A stretch of 64,000 nucleotides of DNA from Candidatus Binatia bacterium (GCA_046754245.1 JBHHVL010000002.1:21540-85539); one strand, 5' to 3'; shown: positions 717 through 31,395, numbered from the stretch's first letter. A program made the numbers and translations. The notes: generated by a model from the sequence alone, not told the origin.

Positions 717-1315
717 CGGCGACGGCGGTGCACAAGCCGCAGAATCTACTCGGCTTCGGTCGAGTCCTGCTCGGGGTGTTTGTCTTCGTCGAACTGTCGC
801 GGTCGGGGTCGTCGTGGTACGTGCTGCCAGCGGTGGTACTCGCCGCCGCGACGGACTGGCTTGACGGTCGACTGGCGCGAAGCCGGTCTGAACAGAGCGA
901 GGCCGGAAGGTTGACCGACAACGTCGCCGACGCGGTGTTCCTCGCCTTCTCTTTCTCGGGGTTCGCGTTGACGGCGACCTGGACCCATCCCCCCTTGGGG
1001 TCTGCCATAAGGTACAGTCCATACGCGAACTGGCTGCCACTGGCGGCTCTGGCGGCCTCCTTTGGCTCCTACCTCCTGCGTTGGAGCCGTTCCACGCGTT
1101 CTTCCCATCCGATCCCGTTTCGGTCCGTTCGCGGGCATTCTGCGGGGGTCGCGAACTACGCTTTGGCGATCATTGGCGGCGTGGCCGTCTTGCCGGCGGT
1201 GTACGTGACGCGCTGGTTTCTGGAGCCGGCCTTTGTCACTGTAGCCTTGCTGAACCTGACGGCGACGGCCGACAACCTGGCTGCCGTCGCAGGGTTGAGA
1301 AGAGGTCGAGTGTGA
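683..1315 (+). CDS. CDP-alcohol phosphatidyltransferase family membrane protein
   Basis: Carries the family signature D-G-x2-A-R-x8-G-x3-D-x3-D (DGRLARSRSEQSEAGRLTDNVAD) and several hydrophobic helices. The start is uncertain: 683 overlaps the upstream gene, and an in-frame GTG lies at 728. Confidence 0.75.
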   Translation: MGRSGAGKRLLTATAVHKPQNLLGFGRVLLGVFVFVELSRSGSSWYVLPAVVLAAATDWLDGRLARSRSEQSEAGRLTDNVADAVFLAFSFSGFALTATWTHPPLGSAIRYSPYANWLPLAALAASFGSYLLRWSRSTRSSHPIPFRSVRGHSAGVANYALAIIGGVAVLPAVYVTRWFLEPAFVTVALLNLTATADNLAAVAGLRRGRV

Positions 1316-2295
1316 ATACGCACGCCGGGCTTACACGCGGAGTAGGACTGGCATTGTCTGTTCTGCTGGCGTCGTGCACGCCGGTGTCGCGGTACTACGA
1401 GATCCACACCGGGGAGCTCAGCTGCGAAGAGGCCAATCGTTTCGTTCACGATGCTCTGATCGCAATGAAGATGCGCATCACCGCGTTTCGGCTGGCGACG
1501 CCGGGTCGACCCGGGTATCTGAGGGCCACCCGCACGGGCCCCACCGGAACGATCAGTGGAGAGGTGAAGATAAACTGTGACCCCGACGGCGTGCACATCG
1601 TGCCACGGGAGGACGGGCTAGGGGGAGAGCAGTATTTCGCCAGGGGCATCTTCCTCTCCGTGACCGGGAGGTCCGGCATATCGGTAGCTTCGATCAAGCG
1701 CGGTTCGCAAGGAGACGCAAGTCCACAGGCCCCTGCCCCGACTCGATCCGCGCCACCCGGCGGGCCCAGCTCGTCGCAGGCGAACAGACGCCGCGCGGTC
1801 GAGAAGAAAGTCGTCGGCGTATCGGTGAAACTCGAACCGATCTACGGGTTCGCGACGGTACTCGATTTCGAGGCCAACCTCGGGGCCGTAGGCCTGCTAC
1901 CCGTGAGGGTGTCACTGGTAAACGGTACCGAGCGCTACTACCTCTTCGATCCGGCCGACCTGGTGTTGCGCCGCGGCGGTTCGCGACTTCGGGCCTACCC
2001 GCTCAGCGCTGCTCAGGCCATAGGCAGGCTCCGGAGCCGCGCGGCGGCTTCTGTCGGTGACGGTGGGGATTCTCAGCCGCAGGGCGAGGAATCCGCGGCG
2101 ATCGGCGACGTCGCGGCGGCAGCCGCGACGATCAAGCGCGAACAGCTAGGTGCGGCGCGGCTCGCTCCCGGACAGAAGCTATCGGGGTTCGTCTACTACG
2201 ACCTCGGGCGTTATGACCGCGCGCGCTTGACGCTCGTCGACGTGGCGACGGGCGAGACCGAAGGCTTCATCGTCGAACTCGAGGCGATGGAGTGA
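1312..2295 (+). CDS. Hypothetical lipoprotein
   Basis: Lies inside ORF 1081..2295. The GTG at 1312 overlaps the upstream stop (GTGA). The N-terminus VNTHAGLTRGVGLALSVLLASC has a signal peptide plus lipobox. No family recognised. Confidence 0.55.
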   Translation: MNTHAGLTRGVGLALSVLLASCTPVSRYYEIHTGELSCEEANRFVHDALIAMKMRITAFRLATPGRPGYLRATRTGPTGTISGEVKINCDPDGVHIVPREDGLGGEQYFARGIFLSVTGRSGISVASIKRGSQGDASPQAPAPTRSAPPGGPSSSQANRRRAVEKKVVGVSVKLEPIYGFATVLDFEANLGAVGLLPVRVSLVNGTERYYLFDPADLVLRRGGSRLRAYPLSAAQAIGRLRSRAAASVGDGGDSQPQGEESAAIGDVAAAAATIKREQLGAARLAPGQKLSGFVYYDLGRYDRARLTLVDVATGETEGFIVELEAME

Positions 2296-2311: not shown

Positions 2312-4387
2312 TTACTCCCGGCTCTGCCCACGAAGGTCGACGACGAGTTTTTCGAGGCCGTCGCGCGCGCGGTCATCCTCTGCTATCGACTCCAGAAGGC
2401 TTTCGTAGAGGCGCAGAGCGATTCGCCTGCAACGCACCGCCCCTTGCGGGTCTCCGGAGTCGTCACGGCTGGCGGCTTCCTTCAAGAAAGCAACGCCGAG
2501 TTTCTTGAACTTCGATCTCTGCCCGCCGTCTTCCAGCGCGATGAGGCGATCGACATCGTCACCGGCGGCGTCGAGCTGCCCGGCCTGGCGGTACCAGTTG
2601 ATGCGCATGGCCAGCACGGCGGCGAACAATTCTGTCTGATCGGGGTAGCGATCTTCGAAACCCTCGAGGCGCGCCATGACGCCGCCGGAGGGCTGCGATT
2701 CATCGCTGGTATACGCGGCCGCGAGCCTGGCCGCGAGATCCGCGGACATCACCACGGCCCTGGCCTCCAGCGGGTCGAGGAGCTTCTCGGTGGCGCGCCC
2801 GGCTGGCCTGAGGGAACGGAAACGTTGCGCTTCCTCCAAGAAGCCGTCTATACCGGCGAGCGCTTGAACGAGCCGTGGTCGAGGGGCCTCGGACCCGGGT
2901 CCCTCCTGGTTTACGGCCTGGTACCCGCACTGCGCCGACTGAAAGGAGGCCTTCAGGTGAAAGGCCGGATCACCGGCGACGCGGCTGAACGCCTCGGCGC
3001 AACCGATGAAGTCGTGTTGGGAGAGCTGCCACTCTCCGAGCCGGAACCAGGCTTCGTGGGCGTTGGGGTGATCCGGGCTCAGCCGGAGGAAGTCTCTCAA
3101 CAGTTCCAGATACATCGTTTCGCTGTCTGCACTGCCGTCGTCGCCTAGCCAGAGTGATTCCGCTGCCTTGAATCGAAGCCACGCGGCCTGTCCGGAATCG
3201 GGGTCCTTCGCGCGTGCCAGTTCCAGAAAAGAACCCAGCTCGGCGATAGACTCGAGGTAGGACCCGGTGTGAAACGCGCACAGACCCCGGCCGTAGTGGG
3301 ACTCGGCGACGTAATCGTGGCGTTCGATGAGTACGCTGAACAGCGGCAAGGCTTCGTCGCATTGCCCGCGTCGGCGAAGCGAATCGGCGATCAGGAAGGT
3401 GACGAAGGTGCTGGCGCCCGAGGCAGCCCACTCTACGGTGTCTTCGACCCCGGCGTCGACGAGCTGGCGCACCTTGGCCTGCCAGTACGTGCCGCGGGCG
3501 TGTAGCTTTTCCATGATCCTCGCTGCTTCCCGCCTGAACTTACCGCGCGTACCGTTGTCGAACGCCGAGCGGTACTTGCCGATCGCGAGTAGAAGAACCT
3601 TCGCTCTGAGGAACATCACCTGCGCGCCGAATTCTCCGGTCGGCACTTTCGCTGCCAGCAAACGGCTCTGCTCGAGAGCGGTGCGGATGTTTCCCAGCGA
3701 CAACTCGGTGTCGCAGAGCGCGAACCGTACCCGCGACGCGATCTCACTGTCGGGATCGTAGTCGAGCGCAGCGCGCAGATCATCGGCCGCCGCCCGGTAC
3801 TGCCGCTGCGCCTTGAGAGCCAAACCGTGCCCGTAAAGACTCTCCGCTGTCAATTCGGAATCACCGCCAGCCATGAATTCGACGAAGCCTTCCGCAGCCT
3901 GCTCGAGCAGGCGCGTGCGCTTGGCCGTGCCGGTTTCAAAGCGCATCGCAATTTCGTAGCGTACCCAGTTCAGACGGTACAGGAGTCGAAGCGCCAGCAA
4001 CTCTCGATCTTGCCAGGCACGACTGTCCTGTACAGCCTCGAGGTCTCCGTCAACACGAATCACCTCGTCCTGCATCTCTTGCAGAGCCGCCGTGTAGACT
4101 CCGCGTACGTTTTCGACGAGGGCCAGAAAGGCGTGGGCTGTAGAAGAAGAAGCCTCGCCGCTGGAAGCAAGCGCGTGGAAGTCGTCGGCCAGGGCCTCAA
4201 TATCCTCGACCAGTCGGCGCTGATCCTGGAATTTCCAGCTCTCTTTGGCCAGGCGCGCGGCGCGGCCACGAACCCGCTGGATCGCGGAGTCGAGCTGCGC
4301 CGGCGAAGCCGAGGCCGCCGCGCTCGGCGGGGAGACGAGCCCGATGAGTAGCAGGGAAGAGACGATGAAGCTGCTGGCGGCTTTCAC
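2312..4387 (-). CDS. Secreted TPR-repeat protein (last gene of the VWA-exbB-exbD-exbD operon)
   Basis: Has a signal peptide (MKAASSFIVSSLLLIGLVSPPSAAASA) and long helical TPR-like repeats. Its GTG start overlaps the exbD stop (GTGA at 4384..4387). Confidence 0.7.
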   Translation of the reverse strand: MKAASSFIVSSLLLIGLVSPPSAAASASPAQLDSAIQRVRGRAARLAKESWKFQDQRRLVEDIEALADDFHALASSGEASSSTAHAFLALVENVRGVYTAALQEMQDEVIRVDGDLEAVQDSRAWQDRELLALRLLYRLNWVRYEIAMRFETGTAKRTRLLEQAAEGFVEFMAGGDSELTAESLYGHGLALKAQRQYRAAADDLRAALDYDPDSEIASRVRFALCDTELSLGNIRTALEQSRLLAAKVPTGEFGAQVMFLRAKVLLLAIGKYRSAFDNGTRGKFRREAARIMEKLHARGTYWQAKVRQLVDAGVEDTVEWAASGASTFVTFLIADSLRRRGQCDEALPLFSVLIERHDYVAESHYGRGLCAFHTGSYLESIAELGSFLELARAKDPDSGQAAWLRFKAAESLWLGDDGSADSETMYLELLRDFLRLSPDHPNAHEAWFRLGEWQLSQHDFIGCAEAFSRVAGDPAFHLKASFQSAQCGYQAVNQEGPGSEAPRPRLVQALAGIDGFLEEAQRFRSLRPAGRATEKLLDPLEARAVVMSADLAARLAAAYTSDESQPSGGVMARLEGFEDRYPDQTELFAAVLAMRINWYRQAGQLDAAGDDVDRLIALEDGGQRSKFKKLGVAFLKEAASRDDSGDPQGAVRCRRIALRLYESLLESIAEDDRARDGLEKLVVDLRGQSRE

Positions 4388-4845
4388 AGGCGGGGCGCCG
4401 TTCCCGTCAACCCGCTGCTGCCGGAGATGGGGAAGACCACTTCGTCGAGCTTCAGTCGCAAGCAGTGGTTGTAGATCCTGATGACGTTCTCGTAGGCTAC
4501 CGAGGCCGACGCATCGATCACGACCAGAGAGTCCTTTGGCACTTGCGCGAGGTGGTCGGCGACACTGCCGAAGTCCACCGCCGGCCAGTCGTCCACGAAG
4601 TACTGAACGCGTTTTCCCGTCTGGACAACGCGGATCACGACCTCACGGTCATTCTCCTTCATATCGAGTTGTTTTTCCTCGATCTCGCCGCCCATGGCGA
4701 GTTCGGAGGGCAGGAGCCCTTCGATCGTCGCAAGCGAGATCGTGAACAGGAAATAGGTCAGCAGTAGAAAGACGCAGTCGATCAGCGGCGCCATGCGCAG
4801 GTCTCCCTCGGGGGGGACTGGTCTAGATTTCCTCGGGCTTCGCAT
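4384..4845 (-). CDS. exbD: Biopolymer transport protein ExbD/TolR
   Basis: About 150 aa. Single N-terminal TM with the ExbD/TolR hallmark (MAPLIDCVFLLLTYFLF) followed by a periplasmic domain. Confidence 0.85.
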   Translation of the reverse strand: MRSPRKSRPVPPEGDLRMAPLIDCVFLLLTYFLFTISLATIEGLLPSELAMGGEIEEKQLDMKENDREVVIRVVQTGKRVQYFVDDWPAVDFGSVADHLAQVPKDSLVVIDASASVAYENVIRIYNHCLRLKLDEVVFPISGSSGLTGTAPRL

Positions 4846-4867
4846 GGCGGTGGGCGGAGCGCGGTCC

Positions 4868-5299
4868 TTAGCCCCCCTCGTCCGCGGTCTGCAGCGCAGC
4901 CAGACTCACGTCTCGGATCCCGGCTTCGGCACTCAAGCGCATGACCCTCTTGATCGCACTGAATTCGCTGCGTCGGTCGCCACGGACAACTACCTCCAGC
5001 TTGCCGCGCTCGAGCTGCTCCTTGCGCGTCTGAAGGTAGGAGTAAAGCTGTCCGGCCGACTTCTGTATGCCACCGACAACGTACAGGCCGTCGCGGGAAA
5101 CATTGATGGATACGAGTTCCACCCGCTCGTCGGTGATTTCCTTGGCCTGATCGGCGCTGGGAAGCTCGACGATCTCTTCACCAGCTTGGCCGAAGCGGAT
5201 CGACATGATGAAGAACGTGATCAACAGAAAAGCCATGTCGATCATCGCCGTGGCACGAAACGAAACCGATCGGGGCCGGTGGGAACGAGCCGATCGCAA
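4868..5299 (-). CDS. exbD: Biopolymer transport protein ExbD/TolR (second copy)
   Basis: 143 aa with the N-terminal TM motif TAMIDMAFLLITFFIM. Sits 2 nt downstream of exbB. Confidence 0.85.
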   Translation of the reverse strand: MRSARSHRPRSVSFRATAMIDMAFLLITFFIMSIRFGQAGEEIVELPSADQAKEITDERVELVSINVSRDGLYVVGGIQKSAGQLYSYLQTRKEQLERGKLEVVVRGDRRSEFSAIKRVMRLSAEAGIRDVSLAALQTADEGG

Positions 5300-5301
5300 T
5301 A

Positions 5302-6096
5302 CTAGAAAACCCCCTTTTCCTTGAGAGGCTCGATCAGATCTTCCGCGCGAGCGACGGCGGCGGAAACCAAAGAATCTATGCGGTTTCGCAGCATGCCGAA
5401 AGCGTAGAGCGTGGGGATGGCGACTATCAACCCCATTACCGTGGTCATCAGGGCTTCGAAGATGCCGCCGGCCAGACGTCTGGGATCCACGCCACCGACG
5501 GCGACCGAAATCTGGTTGAACGAATTCACCATCCCCATCACCGTACCGAGCAAGCCGAGCATGGGTGCTATGTTCGCGATGATGTTGAGGTGCTCGACCT
5601 TTCGAAGTAGACGGCCCGTGAGTTCGTCGGCGCGGTCTTCCATGGCCTTGACGACGGCGTCGTAACCCCGGCCCCTTTCCTTGACGCCGCTGGCGACGAC
5701 GCAGGTGAGGAACGACGGGCTCCCGTCATGCAGCTTGGCGACCACGTGGTCGTACTGTTCACGGTCGAGCAGCGACCGTAGCTGTTTCGTCTCTTCTTCG
5801 GGCATGAGCGCCTTGCGGCGAATCGAGAGCATGTACTCGACGACCAAGGCAACAGAAATAACCGACAACAACAGGATGATGTAGCCCACCCAGCCCCCAA
5901 ACTTTATCAAATCGATGAGGCTGTAGTTCAACGCTTCATTCGACGCCCGGGCAGTCTGCGCCAGCGCCGCTGGTGCGGCCAACAGGACGATTGCGGTCGC
6001 ACCCAGGCCCAGCAGGGCTCCGAGTAGGGCCGTCGACGACCTCCGCGAAAGAGCCGTGCCTGGCAGTGGCCGGCCCGCTTTGTTTTGGGGATTCAT
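5302..6096 (-). CDS. exbB: MotA/TolQ/ExbB proton-channel protein
   Basis: Has TM helices and the conserved C-terminal channel region (IAPMLGLLGTVMGMVNSF ... GIFEALMTTVMGLIVAIP), plus an N-terminal signal-like segment. Confidence 0.85.
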   Translation of the reverse strand: MNPQNKAGRPLPGTALSRRSSTALLGALLGLGATAIVLLAAPAALAQTARASNEALNYSLIDLIKFGGWVGYIILLLSVISVALVVEYMLSIRRKALMPEEETKQLRSLLDREQYDHVVAKLHDGSPSFLTCVVASGVKERGRGYDAVVKAMEDRADELTGRLLRKVEHLNIIANIAPMLGLLGTVMGMVNSFNQISVAVGGVDPRRLAGGIFEALMTTVMGLIVAIPTLYAFGMLRNRIDSLVSAAVARAEDLIEPLKEKGVF

Positions 6097-6143
6097 TGGT
6101 CGTTCTCCTCAGGGCTACTGGTATGAATTACGCCGCCTGGCGC

Positions 6144-7250
6144 TCAGTGGCGAACCGTGTAGCGCGACACCTCTTTTTGCCATCGCGAGCCGAACGCGAA
6201 GAACAGGATCTGCTCGGTAAGCTCGGCGTCGGTGCCGAGCGCAGCCATTTCGCCACCACCTTCGTCGGCTATGGCGCGGAAGGCCCGTCTGACATCCTGG
6301 TAGAACGGGGGCAGGGGTGAGATCTTCTCCGGCGGTTTGCCGTAAAGCCAGGTATGGAGTCGCGTTTCATACTCCTCGTGCATTCGTCTGGTGAGGTCTA
6401 TGGTGCTCATGACTCCGCCCGTATCACGAAATTCTGCGGCGAGGGCTTCGATGGCTTCCATGTCCTTGCGATGAGGTGGCGAACTGCCCACCACGATGAT
6501 TACGCGTTTCGAACGGCGCCGCCAGCTCAGCTCGTCCATTGCTGCTTCGATTCCTTGACGGACGCCCTCTTCCCAATCACCGCCTCCGTCGGCCTCGAGG
6601 TCGTTGATAAAAGCTCTGATCTTGCTAGCGTGGAAGCTCAGATCAGACCAGCGCACGACAAAATCCTCGCCTCGGTCTCGAAAGGCCACGACTCCTACTC
6701 GCGCGATGGGAACCAGGTGCTGGATCCTTTCCACCAGCCCCAGAGCGTTGGCCTTTATGTCGTCTATGACGTGCTGCATACTGGCGGTCGCGTCAATCAC
6801 AACGGCGATGTCGAGGCCGCTCTTGCGCAGCCCGCCGATGAAACTACCAAACTGCGCCGAGAGGCTTCCGGTAACCGTCGTTGGTGAGTACCGAGACTTG
6901 AGGTTGGTGAGGCGCTTGGAACTGGGGCGTGGCGCGGCGAAGCTGCTGAGCTCGGGTAGCCGGACGTCGCGCCGCCGCAGCTGAGGAACCTCGAGTGGTT
7001 TGACCTCGACGTTTTCGATGAGGTTCTCGAGGCTGGTCTGTTCGACCGATTCCGCGGCCAGTGAGATTTGCACCTTCGTTGAACGCGAGCCCGGTACGAG
7101 GCCAAAACCCTCGCCACCGGCGGAAATCGTGATGGTCGCGAGGAGCAAAATGAGAAGAAGATGGAACAGCGCCGATACGGTGAGGCCTTCGAGCCTCCGA
7201 CGGAGCCCCACGTGGTACCGCAGCGCGTCGAAGAAAGTCTTAAGAAACAA
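6144..7250 (-). CDS. Membrane-anchored von Willebrand factor A (VWA) domain protein with TonB-like anchor
   Basis: N-terminal TM LTVSALFHLLLILLLATITIS. VWA domain with a MIDAS-like motif (DIAVVIDATASM ... VVAFRD ... IIVVGSSPPH). First gene of the exbBD operon. Confidence 0.75.
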   Translation of the reverse strand: MFLKTFFDALRYHVGLRRRLEGLTVSALFHLLLILLLATITISAGGEGFGLVPGSRSTKVQISLAAESVEQTSLENLIENVEVKPLEVPQLRRRDVRLPELSSFAAPRPSSKRLTNLKSRYSPTTVTGSLSAQFGSFIGGLRKSGLDIAVVIDATASMQHVIDDIKANALGLVERIQHLVPIARVGVVAFRDRGEDFVVRWSDLSFHASKIRAFINDLEADGGGDWEEGVRQGIEAAMDELSWRRRSKRVIIVVGSSPPHRKDMEAIEALAAEFRDTGGVMSTIDLTRRMHEEYETRLHTWLYGKPPEKISPLPPFYQDVRRAFRAIADEGGGEMAALGTDAELTEQILFFAFGSRWQKEVSRYTVRH

Positions 7251-7387: not shown

Positions 7388-8182
7388 ATGGCTACAAAAA
7401 TCACAGAAGACTGTATCAACTGTGGGGCGTGTGAGCCGGAATGCCCGAACACGGCTATCTACCAGGGGGGGGTAGGCTACGAGTCGGGGGGAGCGAAGCA
7501 CCCGGCTCTCTCGGAGGACTTTTTCTATATAGTCCCGGAGCTGTGCACAGAATGTGTGGGCTTCTTCGAGCAGGAGGCCTGCGCGGTCGTGTGTCCGGTG
7601 GATTGTTGCGTGCCGGACCCCCAGCAGGTGGAAAGCGAGGAGCTACTCATCGGCCGGGCGAAGAGCCTACACCCGGACACGGATTTTGGCTCCGAGTACC
7701 CTTCTCGCTTCAAGGCCGGTGCCGCGGTCGCGGCGGCTCCGGCCGCGAAGGGGGAGGGTGCCACGCAGGCGGATGGCCAATACCAGGAAGCGTCGGAAGT
7801 GGTTGGTAGCGTCACGGAGTCCGATGAAGACCAGGCAGGGGGGAGATCCGTCGCCGAGTTTCCGATACCGCTTCGGTGTCAGAGCTGCGAGGGCGAATAC
7901 GAAGTCCGGTTTGAATTCTTCACGCCGGGCACGGTTCTGCGCTGTCCGTACTGCCAGTTCTCCTTCAGCCCAGGACAGCGCCTGTACCTGGAGCTGGCCG
8001 GTCGGATCGACGCTTACGCGGACCGTATGAACGCCGAAATCGATCGTCACCGGGAAGCGATCGAAGTGGAAGCGGCCGATCATGCGAGAAACACCGACGC
8101 GATCGAGGCGTCGGTCTCGGGGGATATTCGTGACATTGTGCGCAGCCTGACCGAAATTCCGAAGAAATCGGTCTTCGGCTGA
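7388..8182 (+). CDS. 2x[4Fe-4S] ferredoxin (YfhL/Alvin-like) with a long C-terminal zinc-ribbon/coiled-coil extension
   Basis: N-terminus CINCGACEPECP ... CTECVGFFEQEACAVVCPVDCC, then an Ala-rich linker, then CQSCEGEY ... RCPYCQF. Confidence 0.8.
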   Translation: MATKITEDCINCGACEPECPNTAIYQGGVGYESGGAKHPALSEDFFYIVPELCTECVGFFEQEACAVVCPVDCCVPDPQQVESEELLIGRAKSLHPDTDFGSEYPSRFKAGAAVAAAPAAKGEGATQADGQYQEASEVVGSVTESDEDQAGGRSVAEFPIPLRCQSCEGEYEVRFEFFTPGTVLRCPYCQFSFSPGQRLYLELAGRIDAYADRMNAEIDRHREAIEVEAADHARNTDAIEASVSGDIRDIVRSLTEIPKKSVFG

Positions 8183-28215: not shown

Positions 28216-31200
28216 CTAGAGTCTGGTCACTCGGCGGTAGATCCGGGTCAGTTCTTCGGGTAGCTCCTCGATATTCTCGATGATCGCGTAGCGGCTTGTC
28301 GGGCACATGTCGCGTAGATAGTCGTGGCCGGCGGGGTCGACGGTGATGCAGAACGACTTTACGCCAAGGTTTTCCACTTCTCGCAATGCGGTTGCGGTGT
28401 CGCGCAGGCCGTAGGTGTTCGACCGGCGGTCGTCCCCGTAGTCGTGGTCTTGGGGAAAACCGTCGCTGAGCAGGATGAGGTGTCGCGAACGAGCGGTTAC
28501 GCGCGAGAGTTTTTCGGCGGAATGGCGAAGCGCGGCGCCCATGCGAGTCGAACGTTTCGGTGTTATGCCCCCGACGCGTGACTTCACACGCGCGGTCAGA
28601 CGTTCGGAGAACGCCTTTACGTGGAAGTACTCGACGTTGTCTCTGCCGTGCCCGGAGAACCCGTACATCGCGTACGAATCGCCGATGTCCTCGAGGACTT
28701 CGGACATCACGACGAGCGTCTCCTTGAACAGATCGATCACGCAGCGAAGCCCTGGATCGTGCGCACCACCCCCCTCGTTCTTTAGGGGCTCGTCGGTAGA
28801 CGCGCTCATGTCGACGAGAAAAAGGGTGGCGACATCACGCTCTTGCCGTCGCCGCGCGACGTAATAACGGTCGGTTGGTGACCGCCGCGAGCGACGTTCG
28901 GCGTGTGCGTCGATCAGCGCGTTGAGGTCAAAGTCTTCACCGTCCTCCATCCCACGTACCTTACGGTACTGGTCCGGCTTCATTCTCTGAAACTCGTGCT
29001 TGATCATCTGGATCAGCTCGCCCGAAGCGGCGAGTACACGGTGGAAGTACTCGCCGCCGTCCCCGTCGACCACGAGTTCCGACAGGCGACACCAATCCTT
29101 GCGGTAGTCGCTTATGAGATAGTCCCACTCGTCGTAACGGTAGCTGGCGCCGCTGCTCTGGAGGTTCAGCCATCTGCGAACGCCAGATACGTCGCCGGCC
29201 GCCAGCTTGGTGCGCAGATCAGCGAGCGTCTGCGCTGGCAACTTGCCGAGCAGGTCCGTGATGTACAATCCCAGGCTCGCCTGTTCCTGGCCGCGAGATT
29301 CCGACAGGAGCAGGTCGTCGGCTTCTTCGAGCAAGCGACGAATCTCTTCCGCGCTGAGCGGCCTGGCACCAGCGCCGGGGTGGTCGTCGGTATCGTCAAG
29401 CCGGACCGAGAGATCCTGCTCCCCCGACACCGATTCGTCGCGGGTGTCTTGACCGCCCTCGTCGTCACCGGCGGTGGGCATGGATCCGCTCCCGCCGTAC
29501 TCGAGGTGCTCGAGGGGGTCTATTACCGTCGCCCCTCCGGCTTCGATGGCCACGGCCTCTTCCTCGTCTACCGCCCGCGCGTCAGCCAGCGACAGCTCGC
29601 TGTAGAAGCCGCAGAACAACGCCGCGCTATCGTAGACCGTAGCTCCCTCGGAGCGGAGCAAGTCGAGGGCCGGCGCGAGGGAACGACCGAAGGCGCGCAA
29701 CCGGGGCGCGAGCCCAGCTGCGCTGCGGCGGCCGACGGTCATGTGGAACAGGGCCTCGAGTAGAGACTCGGCGGGACGGTCGGGGGCCTGCAGTGGCGGG
29801 TTGGCCGCGTAGTGGCGACCCAAACGATCCATGTCTTCGGCCAGACCCGCGAATTCACGCTCAATGCAAGAATCGATGCGGGCTCCCTCGAGCAAGACGA
29901 AGAGCGCCGACGCGAGCAAGGGGTTGGGGTAGGAATTAAGCAGTGAGACGACGTCGTCGCCTTCCGGCTCTTCTCCGGCGCCTCCGGGCGGGCGCCAGCC
30001 CAAGCGCCGAAACCAGTCAAGGTTGAAGTCGTAGGTTCCGTACTCCCAGCGACCCGCGAAATGCGCGGCTGTGAGCTTGTAGAAGAGCTGGTTGTCTTCC
30101 GAATTATCGCAGAGGTCGACCCGCTCTGGCAGCTGCAGAGCCGTATCATCGGGGGCGTAAAGCGGGGGCCTGTACCACACTCCGGGCGAACTGGTCAGCT
30201 GAAAGTGCCGGCGCGACATCATCACGAGATAGCGTTGGATCAGCCCCTCTACTTCTTCGAAAGCGACCGCCGCCGTATGTTGCACGAGCACCTTGTGTGA
30301 GGTCCGGCTCTGGAGGTTGAAGTAAGCCTGTCCGGCGTCCCTGCTGCGCTCACCGAGTTCGGCTCCCTTTCTTACCCAGAGTTCGAAGCCTTCACGGCCC
30401 CCCTCCTCGAGAGCCCGGCACATGGTGCGCAGGTACGCCGGAAGCCCGGACGGAAACCGCGCGGCGACGGCTGGCGCCGACGAGAGCACGAGATCGATGC
30501 TTTCCCCGTCGAGGGCGTGCGTGAGCGCTGGCAACAGGGATACCGATTCGACGAGTCCCTCCGCGGACGGGTCTTGTTCGAGCGCTGAGAGCAGATCGTC
30601 ACCACCGTGACGTGGGAGCGAGGACAGTGACCTCGGTAGACGCGACAGCATGTTGGGAGCGGCGAGGGGGTTGACCGCCGCTAGTCGAGAGCACAGATTG
30701 AGCACCCGCAGTTGATGGTCGGGGGAAAGACCGCCCAGTTCGGCGGGCGGTTCGGGGGCTCGGGCGCGCCGGCCGAGGGAGGACAACAGCTCGACACAGG
30801 TCACCCAGCCGGGGACCGCGGGGGGCGCCAGCGACGCCAACAGGTTGGCGGCGGAAGCGGTGATCGCCTTAGCCGTAAACTCTGAGCGCCAACCGCCGCC
30901 GTCAACCAGGCTGGTCAAAGCCTCGCGCCAGGCCGCGATTTGTTGGCGCTGTGGCGGCCGCTTGGAGCACAGTACGGGTCCGGTAACGGTCACGAACTGA
31001 GCACCGAGTCGCCGCGACCGTCGCGAAAGGTCTCGCGAACAAGCGAGCCATTCCTGCCTGCACTCGGGCGGGAGCGACATGAAGCGGTCCTGGTCAAGCC
31101 CGAAGAAGGCGTCGGCGGCTTCCCTGTACTCGATATCGTCGCCCATCACGTCGAGAGCACAGTGCTTCCACTCCTCGAACCGAGAAGCCGCCGCGCGCAG

Positions 31201-31395
31201 TATACCAACGGCGGCGATTAGGTAGATATGCGAGAGGGTGACTGAACGCTTGGCGATACGATCCCCCAGCGCGAGAACTCGATCACGGCTTTCCGCGTCG
31301 AGACTTGTCACGAAAGCGACGGCGTCTGCCCCGGCGTTACTTCGTGACAGATGTCCACTCGCCAGCCAGCCTCTGTCAGCCGACATCTCAACCAC
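28216..31395 (-). CDS. CbbO/NorD-like VWA-domain protein (1059 aa)
   Basis: NorD/CbbO hallmark YRYDEWDYLISDYRKDWCRL. C-terminal VWA with MIDAS motif LFLVDMSASTDE. Follows a CbbQ/NorQ-type ATPase gene. Confidence 0.8.
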   Translation of the reverse strand: MVEMSADRGWLASGHLSRSNAGADAVAFVTSLDAESRDRVLALGDRIAKRSVTLSHIYLIAAVGILRAAASRFEEWKHCALDVMGDDIEYREAADAFFGLDQDRFMSLPPECRQEWLACSRDLSRRSRRLGAQFVTVTGPVLCSKRPPQRQQIAAWREALTSLVDGGGWRSEFTAKAITASAANLLASLAPPAVPGWVTCVELLSSLGRRARAPEPPAELGGLSPDHQLRVLNLCSRLAAVNPLAAPNMLSRLPRSLSSLPRHGGDDLLSALEQDPSAEGLVESVSLLPALTHALDGESIDLVLSSAPAVAARFPSGLPAYLRTMCRALEEGGREGFELWVRKGAELGERSRDAGQAYFNLQSRTSHKVLVQHTAAVAFEEVEGLIQRYLVMMSRRHFQLTSSPGVWYRPPLYAPDDTALQLPERVDLCDNSEDNQLFYKLTAAHFAGRWEYGTYDFNLDWFRRLGWRPPGGAGEEPEGDDVVSLLNSYPNPLLASALFVLLEGARIDSCIEREFAGLAEDMDRLGRHYAANPPLQAPDRPAESLLEALFHMTVGRRSAAGLAPRLRAFGRSLAPALDLLRSEGATVYDSAALFCGFYSELSLADARAVDEEEAVAIEAGGATVIDPLEHLEYGGSGSMPTAGDDEGGQDTRDESVSGEQDLSVRLDDTDDHPGAGARPLSAEEIRRLLEEADDLLLSESRGQEQASLGLYITDLLGKLPAQTLADLRTKLAAGDVSGVRRWLNLQSSGASYRYDEWDYLISDYRKDWCRLSELVVDGDGGEYFHRVLAASGELIQMIKHEFQRMKPDQYRKVRGMEDGEDFDLNALIDAHAERRSRRSPTDRYYVARRRQERDVATLFLVDMSASTDEPLKNEGGGAHDPGLRCVIDLFKETLVVMSEVLEDIGDSYAMYGFSGHGRDNVEYFHVKAFSERLTARVKSRVGGITPKRSTRMGAALRHSAEKLSRVTARSRHLILLSDGFPQDHDYGDDRRSNTYGLRDTATALREVENLGVKSFCITVDPAGHDYLRDMCPTSRYAIIENIEELPEELTRIYRRVTRL

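Follow-up and report, generated by a model that had tools for sequence, protein, structure and literature searches.

A Ton/Tol-like motor operon with a membrane-anchored VWA protein as putative force transducer in a Candidatus Binatia bacterium

We analysed a stretch of 64,000 nucleotides from a Candidatus Binatia bacterium (GCA_046754245.1, JBHHVL010000002.1:21540-85539), hereafter the window. Between positions 2312 and 7250, its minus strand carries five tightly packed open reading frames (ORFs) that code for a transmembrane (TM) VWA protein, an ExbB/TolQ-like protein, two ExbD/TolR-like proteins and a TPR protein. A sequence-only reading of this locus had proposed a Ton/Tol-like motor in which a VWA protein, anchored by a helix with the SHLS-type motif of TonB and TolA, occupies the slot of the usual transducer. 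This proposal is supported by the S-x3-H pattern of the helix, by the linkage of the genes and by the residues that the motor proteins retain. The idea is already in print as a computational proposal: vWA force transducers were put forward by genome comparison, with Tichowtungia aerotolerans as the seed organism (Mol Biol Evol 2025;42:msaf138; PMC12204202). The window holds a further member of that class.

The operon and its VWA protein

The genes and the features of the VWA protein are listed here in window coordinates.

6144-7250, minus strand: TM-VWA protein, putative force transducer, 368 amino acids (ORF; Pfam VWA, VWA_2, VWA_4)
7119-7187, minus strand: TM helix of this protein, residues 22-44, with the SHLS-type motor-docking motif (sequence and alignment)
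7059-7076, minus strand: candidate motor box, beta-strand K59-V-Q-I-S-L64, 15 residues past the helix (alternating hydrophobic pattern)
6156-6815, minus strand: VWA domain, residues 146-365, with a MIDAS-like site (Pfam VWA at 147-284, E 3e-8; AlphaFold2)
5302-6096, minus strand: ExbB/TolQ-like proton-channel subunit, 264 amino acids, with an N-terminal signal-like extension (MotA_ExbB, E 8e-28)
4868-5299, minus strand: ExbD/TolR-like subunit 1, 143 amino acids, TM Asp21 (Pfam ExbD, E 2e-17)
4384-4845, minus strand: ExbD/TolR-like subunit 2, 153 amino acids, TM Asp23 (Pfam ExbD, E 2e-13)
2312-4387, minus strand: TPR protein, 691 amino acids, with an N-terminal signal-like sequence (Pfam TPR repeats)

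The sequence confirms the five co-directional ORFs and their spacing. The intergenic gaps measure 47, 2 and 22 nucleotides in order, followed by a GTGA overlap of 4 nucleotides. Pfam agrees with the identities assigned to all five genes, and also with the claim that no TonB or TolA C-terminal domain is encoded in the operon, since none of its proteins matches TonB_C or a TolA domain. Among the six-frame ORFs of the 64-kb window, six TonB/TolA query sequences found no TonB/TolA-like ORF, and the window's own motor proteins found no second motor. A promoter and terminator scan detected no sigma-70-like promoter and only weak terminator-like hairpins, all of them inside coding sequence. This outcome speaks neither for nor against co-transcription of the operon.

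The VWA protein begins with a short cytoplasmic N-terminus (about 21 residues), followed by one TM helix, a disordered linker of about 87 residues and the C-terminal VWA domain. Its helix reads S26-ALF-H30-LLLILL-L37-ATI-T41, with S26 encoded at 7173-7175 and H30 at 7161-7163. At least 129 homologues of this protein were found, every one from metagenomes or metagenome-assembled genomes (MAGs). An alignment of 35 homologues, down to 34% identity (A1), shows S26 and H30 to be invariant. A profile derived from A1 was searched against 1.84 billion cluster representatives and returned 488 of them at E<=1e-30. Helix residues were counted in those 97 of the best 150 profile matches whose TM region aligns. 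The His is kept in 96 of these 97 TM-bearing representatives and the Ser in 89, with Ala in seven, while position 37 is Leu in 73/96. By these counts, what marks the family is the S-x3-H core of the motif, and not its last position.

Past the helix, an alternating hydrophobic stretch occupies the place of the candidate motor box across A1, with examples such as RVRLTM, KVQLAF, IRVKV and INVKI. The motor box is a linker strand concept described for TonB and TolA (PMC12204202).

The expected VWA domain with a MIDAS-like (metal-ion-dependent adhesion site) DATAS motif is borne out by Pfam, by the predicted fold and by D153-A-T-A-S157 itself (6780-6794). The AlphaFold2 (AF2) model calculated on the alignment has a mean pLDDT (predicted local distance difference test) of 71.7. 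It contains a helix at residues 2-45, a low-confidence segment at 45-131 and a confident VWA alpha/beta fold at 129-365. Foldseek matches this domain to Rpn10, BatB (3ibs), integrin beta I and anthrax-receptor domains with E-values between 1e-9 and 1e-7. A search of the VWA profile against solved structures gave a single match, which was spurious. Because the solved structures provided no template, the MIDAS residues were mapped via predicted secondary structure. Loop 1 is the D-A-T-A-S segment, loop 2 is G223-G224-D225 and loop 3 is S256-S257-P258-P259-H260; all three coincide with strand-to-helix turns of the AF2 model.

Conservation of the site was counted in the best 150 representative matches of the A1 profile. 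D153 is kept in 143/143, T155 in 138/143, S157 in 140/143 and D225 in 131/150. P258, P259 and H260 are also conserved across the family, and this Pro-Pro-His segment does not belong to the canonical MIDAS. At position 256, 127 of 148 relatives have Asp (G-D-A-P-P-H) and the window's clade has Ser (G-S-S-P-P-H; S256-S257 encoded at 6480-6485). A possible second VWA protein lies elsewhere in the window (28216-31395, minus strand): this ORF of 1059 amino acids has a C-terminal VWA match below the cut-off (21.8 bits) as its sole Pfam signal.

The motor, its gene linkage and candidate partners

The ExbB-like protein retains the motifs GT(V), with the TM2 Thr, and EAL..T..P, with the Glu, Thr and Pro of TM3. 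Over TM2-TM3 it aligns with TolQ and ExbB chains of the PDB, scoring 39-43 bits against TolQ structures. In NCBIfam it matches tolQ best, with 76 bits, a score that falls well short of the equivalog cut-off. The two ExbD-like proteins (subunit 1, AMIDMAFLLITFF; subunit 2, APLIDCVFLLLTYF) keep the TM Asp as D21 and D23, respectively, and neither has a sequence match among solved structures. Together, ExbB and the two different ExbD proteins carry the sequence features of a putative 5:2 proton-driven motor. ExbD2 is probably the heterodimer partner of ExbD1.

Scanning a single genome for each species gave 547 relatives, and 80 loci were read; the linkage counts use the 69 loci with close relatives. 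The relatives come mostly from Candidatus Binatia or from MAGs labelled Deltaproteobacteria, Myxococcales or Proteobacteria, and the closest is 75% identical. On the same strand and within 6.5 kb of the VWA gene, ExbB is present at 65 of the 69 loci and ExbD at 67. A homologous TPR gene adjoins the VWA or motor genes at 62. All three are linked with the VWA gene in 59/69 loci, in at least four gene orders, including the following.

ExbB-ExbD-VWA-TPR: 32 loci, and 3 more that carry an additional motor gene or pair downstream (35 in total)
VWA-ExbB-ExbD-ExbD-TPR, the order of the window: 10 loci
VWA-ExbB-ExbD-TPR: 9 loci
VWA-TPR-ExbB-ExbD: 4 loci

The commonest order sets the VWA gene exactly in the slot of tonB or tolA. 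What the survey finds conserved is the linkage of the four kinds of gene; the exact order of the window, on which the sequence-only reading had also drawn, is rearranged at most loci. Retention of the same parts through such reshuffling argues strongly that they function together. The S-x3-H pattern is present in nearly all ExbB-linked relatives, and the exceptions are ORFs that a contig end or the ORF calling had shortened.

The relatives use two motor types. The first consists of a signal-peptide ExbB of 240-270 amino acids and two ExbD proteins. It occurs in the window and in Alphaproteobacteria, and its nearest counterpart is that of Tichowtungia. The second, found in most Binatia, combines an ExbB of 214-216 amino acids that has no signal peptide with one ExbD. 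The ExbB proteins of the two types match each other at only 40-62 bits (loci L001-L069 and L083). Among the relatives with the gene order of the window, L001-L009 and L065 have two paralogous ExbD genes and L010 shows one; the Tichowtungia seed locus also has two. Reading by eye found S-x3-H also in alphaproteobacterial loci that have two ExbD genes. One VWA transducer family travels with two distinct motor types.

A second ExbB-ExbD pair lies a few kb downstream of VWA-TPR in L036, L040, L041, L043, L047-L051, L054, L055, L062 and L081. In L081, the only such locus with called genes, this pair has no adjoining TonB-like gene.

About one third of the TM-bearing VWA relatives have an N-terminal cytoplasmic FHA domain, followed by an S-x3-H helix and then by the VWA domain, in a total of 500-730 amino acids. 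Examples are encoded in L070 (7200-8999) and L082 (8001-10019), and proteins P0168, P0181 and P0192 show the same architecture. At the two loci inspected (L070 and L082), no ExbB or ExbD gene was found near the FHA-fused VWA gene. We found no mention of the FHA-TM-VWA architecture in PMC12204202.

The survey shows the TPR protein to be the conserved fourth component, with scaffold or transducer partner as candidate roles. Its length of 691 residues and its TPR repeats are as the sequence-only reading had described, and its N-terminal signal-like sequence suggests that it is secreted, as had also been stated. The parallel drawn with CpoB/YbgF is one of position and does not extend to the type of protein. 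We rejected CpoB as its identity because this long TPR solenoid scores 32.7 bits against TIGR02795 (CpoB/YbgF), where the cut-off is 90.1. Between the TPR proteins of the window and of Tichowtungia, phmmer detects no similarity.

A further candidate partner lies outside the operon proper.

1312-2295, plus strand: lipoprotein gene with the lipobox LLASC and no Pfam family, convergent to the TPR gene

The stop codons of the lipoprotein and TPR genes are 17 nucleotides apart. At 14 loci, which represent two of the gene-order types, a homologue of the lipoprotein gene comes directly after the TPR gene and is encoded on the other strand. In a third type, at Binatia loci, a profile detects weaker relatives at a distance of about 2.5 kb. 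Unbiased clustering of the remaining neighbour ORFs in the related loci returned this gene as the sole further recurrent one. The C-terminal motif D..TGETEGF is invariant. A confident AF2 model (pLDDT 84.5) comprises an alpha/beta domain and a beta-sandwich. The fold search was uninformative, with its best match, at E 6e-4, to beta-sandwich lipoproteins like YcdA of B. subtilis. The lipoprotein may be an accessory component or a partner of the system.

This gene ends a plus-strand string that starts with a PD40 beta-propeller protein (3-716, cut by the window start) and continues with a CDP-alcohol phosphatidyltransferase (683-1315), which overlaps the lipoprotein gene (1312-2295) by GTGA. The PD40 and phosphatidyltransferase genes are conserved solely in the closest relatives (L001-L007). 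The PD40 gene, which came up in the comparison with tolB-pal, lies on the strand opposite to the operon. Divergent from the operon, a plus-strand gene at 7388-8182 encodes a protein whose 4Fe-4S ferredoxin-like N-terminus leads into an acidic linker and a C-terminal part rich in Cys; conservation of this gene is limited to close relatives. The 64-kb window (1-64000) contains no tRNA gene and no Rfam family at the gathering threshold.

A proposed mechanism and its rivals

Our analysis documents the parts, the conservation of their residues, the joint inheritance of the genes and the fold. As to how these parts may work, we think it probable that a 5:2 proton motor pulls on a periplasmic partner by way of a membrane-anchored VWA "hand". 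The operon would then encode a third kind of Ton/Tol-type envelope machine. Five copies of ExbB and an ExbD1-ExbD2 heterodimer would assemble in the inner membrane, and the single TM helix of the VWA protein would use S26 and H30 to dock outside the ExbB ring, in the manner of TonB and TolA. The linker beta-strand K59-L64 could engage the periplasmic ExbD dimer. Proton flow would cause the motor to pull the flexible linker, and the VWA domain would grip a periplasmic or outer-membrane partner through its MIDAS-like site. This partner would most likely be the TPR protein or something that it presents, and the neighbouring lipoprotein is also a possible candidate. Candidates for the physiological output are tethering of the outer membrane, adhesion or gliding at the surface, and transport.

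Several observations weigh against this mechanism. The helix spacing S26/H30/L37/T41 noted by the sequence-only reading is present in the window, and in the family its S-x3-H core is conserved and L37 mostly so, but T41 is not: this position is Thr in only 25/96 TM-bearing representatives. The FHA-fused relatives that carry S-x3-H away from motor genes indicate that the motif is not always linked to a motor locally. The motor-box pattern of K59-L64 gives a weaker, modest signal in the wider family than in A1, and the AF2 monomer forms no strand there but leaves the linker disordered. With 7 Pro in 87 residues (45-131), this linker is also unlike that of TonB. Metal binding is uncertain because the window's clade has Ser in place of the third-loop MIDAS Asp. 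Finally, the published class is itself a computational proposal made without a phenotype or an experimental test (PMC12204202), and our literature search found no follow-up.

We weighed three other explanations. The VWA and TPR proteins might form a motor-independent complex of the BatA-E type, with ExbB and ExbD serving an ordinary TonB or TolA whose gene lies elsewhere in the genome. TM-VWA and TPR proteins occur together in Bat operons as well, and the window's VWA domain has BatB (3ibs, E 3e-8) among its best fold matches. Furthermore, tonB is frequently unlinked from exbBD in other bacteria, and our search for TonB and TolA covered the 64-kb window. However, Bat operons have no ExbB and ExbD, and Bat VWA anchors are not known to carry SHLS. 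The family-wide conservation of the helix His and Ser would be needless for a plain membrane anchor, and the linkage to ExbB and ExbD persists through four gene orders and two motor types. No BatA N-terminal domain was detected (Pfam shows VWA models only), and neither the window nor the related loci have MoxR or DUF58 neighbours. On these last grounds we rejected identity with a Bat operon, and we consider a Bat-like complex very unlikely. An engine for motility or adhesion of the Agl-Glt type, in which a TolQ-like and two TolR-like proteins drive a complex with a VWA adhesin, seems to us just as improbable. AglRQS comprises one TolQ-like and two different TolR-like proteins, a composition matched by the one ExbB and two different ExbD proteins of the window. 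VWA domains serve as gliding adhesins, CglB reportedly being one, and several of the related MAGs are labelled Myxococcales. A gliding role has also been suggested for the published class (PMC12204202). Against such an engine, glt-like neighbours do not recur in the related loci, where clustering gave the lipoprotein alone; the VWA protein of the window has an inner-membrane anchor instead of being a surface lipoprotein; and most of its relatives, those from Binatia, have one ExbD.

Docking on the motor might instead serve positioning or signalling, with no pulling on the outer membrane (compare PocAB-TonB3 in Pseudomonas polar localisation, or a signal passed across the membrane in the FHA-bearing relatives). 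The FHA domain of many TM-bearing relatives is a reader of phospho-threonine that is typical of signalling, and the linker of the window protein is short and proline-poor relative to TonB. However, the few cytoplasmic residues of this protein form no signalling domain, and a candidate motor-box strand together with a VWA "hand" suits force transduction. Fully extended, the 87-residue linker could span the periplasm. We regard positioning or signalling as unlikely, and retain the pulling motor as the favoured mechanism.

Ton and Tol are the two textbook routes by which inner-membrane energy reaches the outer envelope in diderm bacteria. If it proved true, a third output module in which a TonB-like tether ends in a VWA domain would enlarge this picture. 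With at least 488 clusters (50% identity), the MIDAS-bearing branch greatly outnumbers the Tichowtungia seed group; it dominates in Binatia and related uncultured lineages. As a tentative and rather doubtful extension, we suggest that MIDAS-bearing S-x3-H/VWA proteins may constitute the bulk of a third trans-envelope system powered by protons. A MIDAS grip would here replace beta-strand augmentation, the partner would be the TPR protein or the lipoprotein, two motor types would supply the force and FHA domains would provide a link to phospho-signalling. Such a grip may be integrin-like, metal-ion-dependent and possibly of the catch-bond kind, and the FHA-fused relatives may be coupled to Ser/Thr phospho-signalling. 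A grip of the MIDAS type is mechanically interesting because such sites can strengthen under load.

Comparison with known systems

The VWA protein shares with TonB an SHLS-type helix with the key His, ExbB/ExbD partners with the TM Asp and a flexible linker with a candidate post-helix strand. It differs in that a VWA domain replaces the beta-strand-augmentation domain TonB_C, the linker is not proline-rich and no TonB-dependent receptor lies nearby. The missing TonB_C and proline-rich spacer led us to reject TonB as its identity. The Tol-Pal system is similar in other respects. In NCBIfam and PDB searches, the window's ExbB is nearer to TolQ than to ExbB. The order ExbB-ExbD-X-TPR at 35 loci echoes tolQ-tolR-tolA...cpoB, and a lipoprotein gene is adjacent. 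However, the operon lacks TolA domain III and tolB-pal and its TPR protein is of another type than CpoB, so that identity with TolA/Tol-Pal was also rejected; nor does the lipoprotein carry an OmpA/Pal domain. The likeness to BatA/BatB lies in a membrane-anchored VWA protein that is encoded together with a TPR protein.

An anti-phage defence system, for example a Zorya-type system with MotAB-like proteins, was considered and rejected because none of six proteins gave a PADLOC match. The paper on vWA force transducers describes a second family, TPH-vWA proteins with tolQ only (seed Idiomarina), which have an ExbD-like trans-pore helix (TPH) with Asp and no tolR/exbD (PMC12204202). As in that family, a VWA domain would be coupled here to a TolQ-like pentamer. 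In contrast, the helix of the VWA protein of the window contains Ser and His but lacks Asp, and its operon includes two ExbD genes; on these two differences we rejected membership of the TPH-vWA family.

The sequence-only reading had held that the arrangement matches no described system. This view is refuted by PMC12204202, the one directly relevant paper in a full-text search, which describes exactly such a class. Its members are tethered to the inner membrane by an SHLS helix and continue with a disordered linker that contains a motor box and with a C-terminal vWA domain. Their genes show synteny with one tolQ-like gene, two tolR-like genes that differ from each other and a gene for a TPR protein, and AlphaFold 3 models place the helix His on the motor. 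For a direct comparison, seed proteins of Tichowtungia aerotolerans were taken from the supplement of the paper and from a protein collection. The seed locus reads vWA (781 amino acids)-TPR (938)-262 amino acids-ExbB-ExbD-ExbD-vWA (476)-vWA (474). The ExbB of the window is specifically related to the seed ExbB, which it matches over nearly its full length (98 bits, E 2e-31, compared with the 39-43 bits against TolQ structures). A signal peptide and, ahead of TM1, the motif L-[IL]-K-x-GGW are common to the two. The VWA proteins are remotely related. The A1 profile reaches a probability of only 43% against a single seed VWA sequence, and with hhalign 94.3% (E 1e-7, 124 columns) against the seed-family alignment A3. 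These columns include an unusual motif, F-x-G-x-[RK]-x-x-G ahead of VWA strand 1, that both families share. The ExbB match and the VWA profile match to the seed indicate that the system of the window belongs to the published class. The window adds to this class a large MIDAS-retaining branch, strong statistics on the conservation of the docking Ser and His, two motor types and a candidate lipoprotein partner. These additions help in choosing constructs and mutants, without revealing the function.

Like the published class, the VWA protein of the window combines an S-x3-H helix, a disordered linker with a candidate motor box and a vWA domain in place of the TonB/TolA C-terminal domain. The operon also has the partner set of the Tichowtungia seed, in which a single ExbB/TolQ is joined by two different ExbD/TolR proteins and a large TPR protein. 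The gene order differs, with vWA first and TPR last here and TPR-X-tolQ-tolR-tolR-vWA-vWA in the seed, and a single transducer stands against two to three paralogues in the seed. The lineage of the window, Binatia and related MAGs, is not named in PMC12204202. At the VWA site, the seed family is degenerate (consensus D-A-S-K-x-M) and has no Pfam match, whereas the window family retains D-x-T-x-S and is recognised by Pfam. Judged by sequence, the VWA family of the window is a distinct, MIDAS-retaining branch of the published class.

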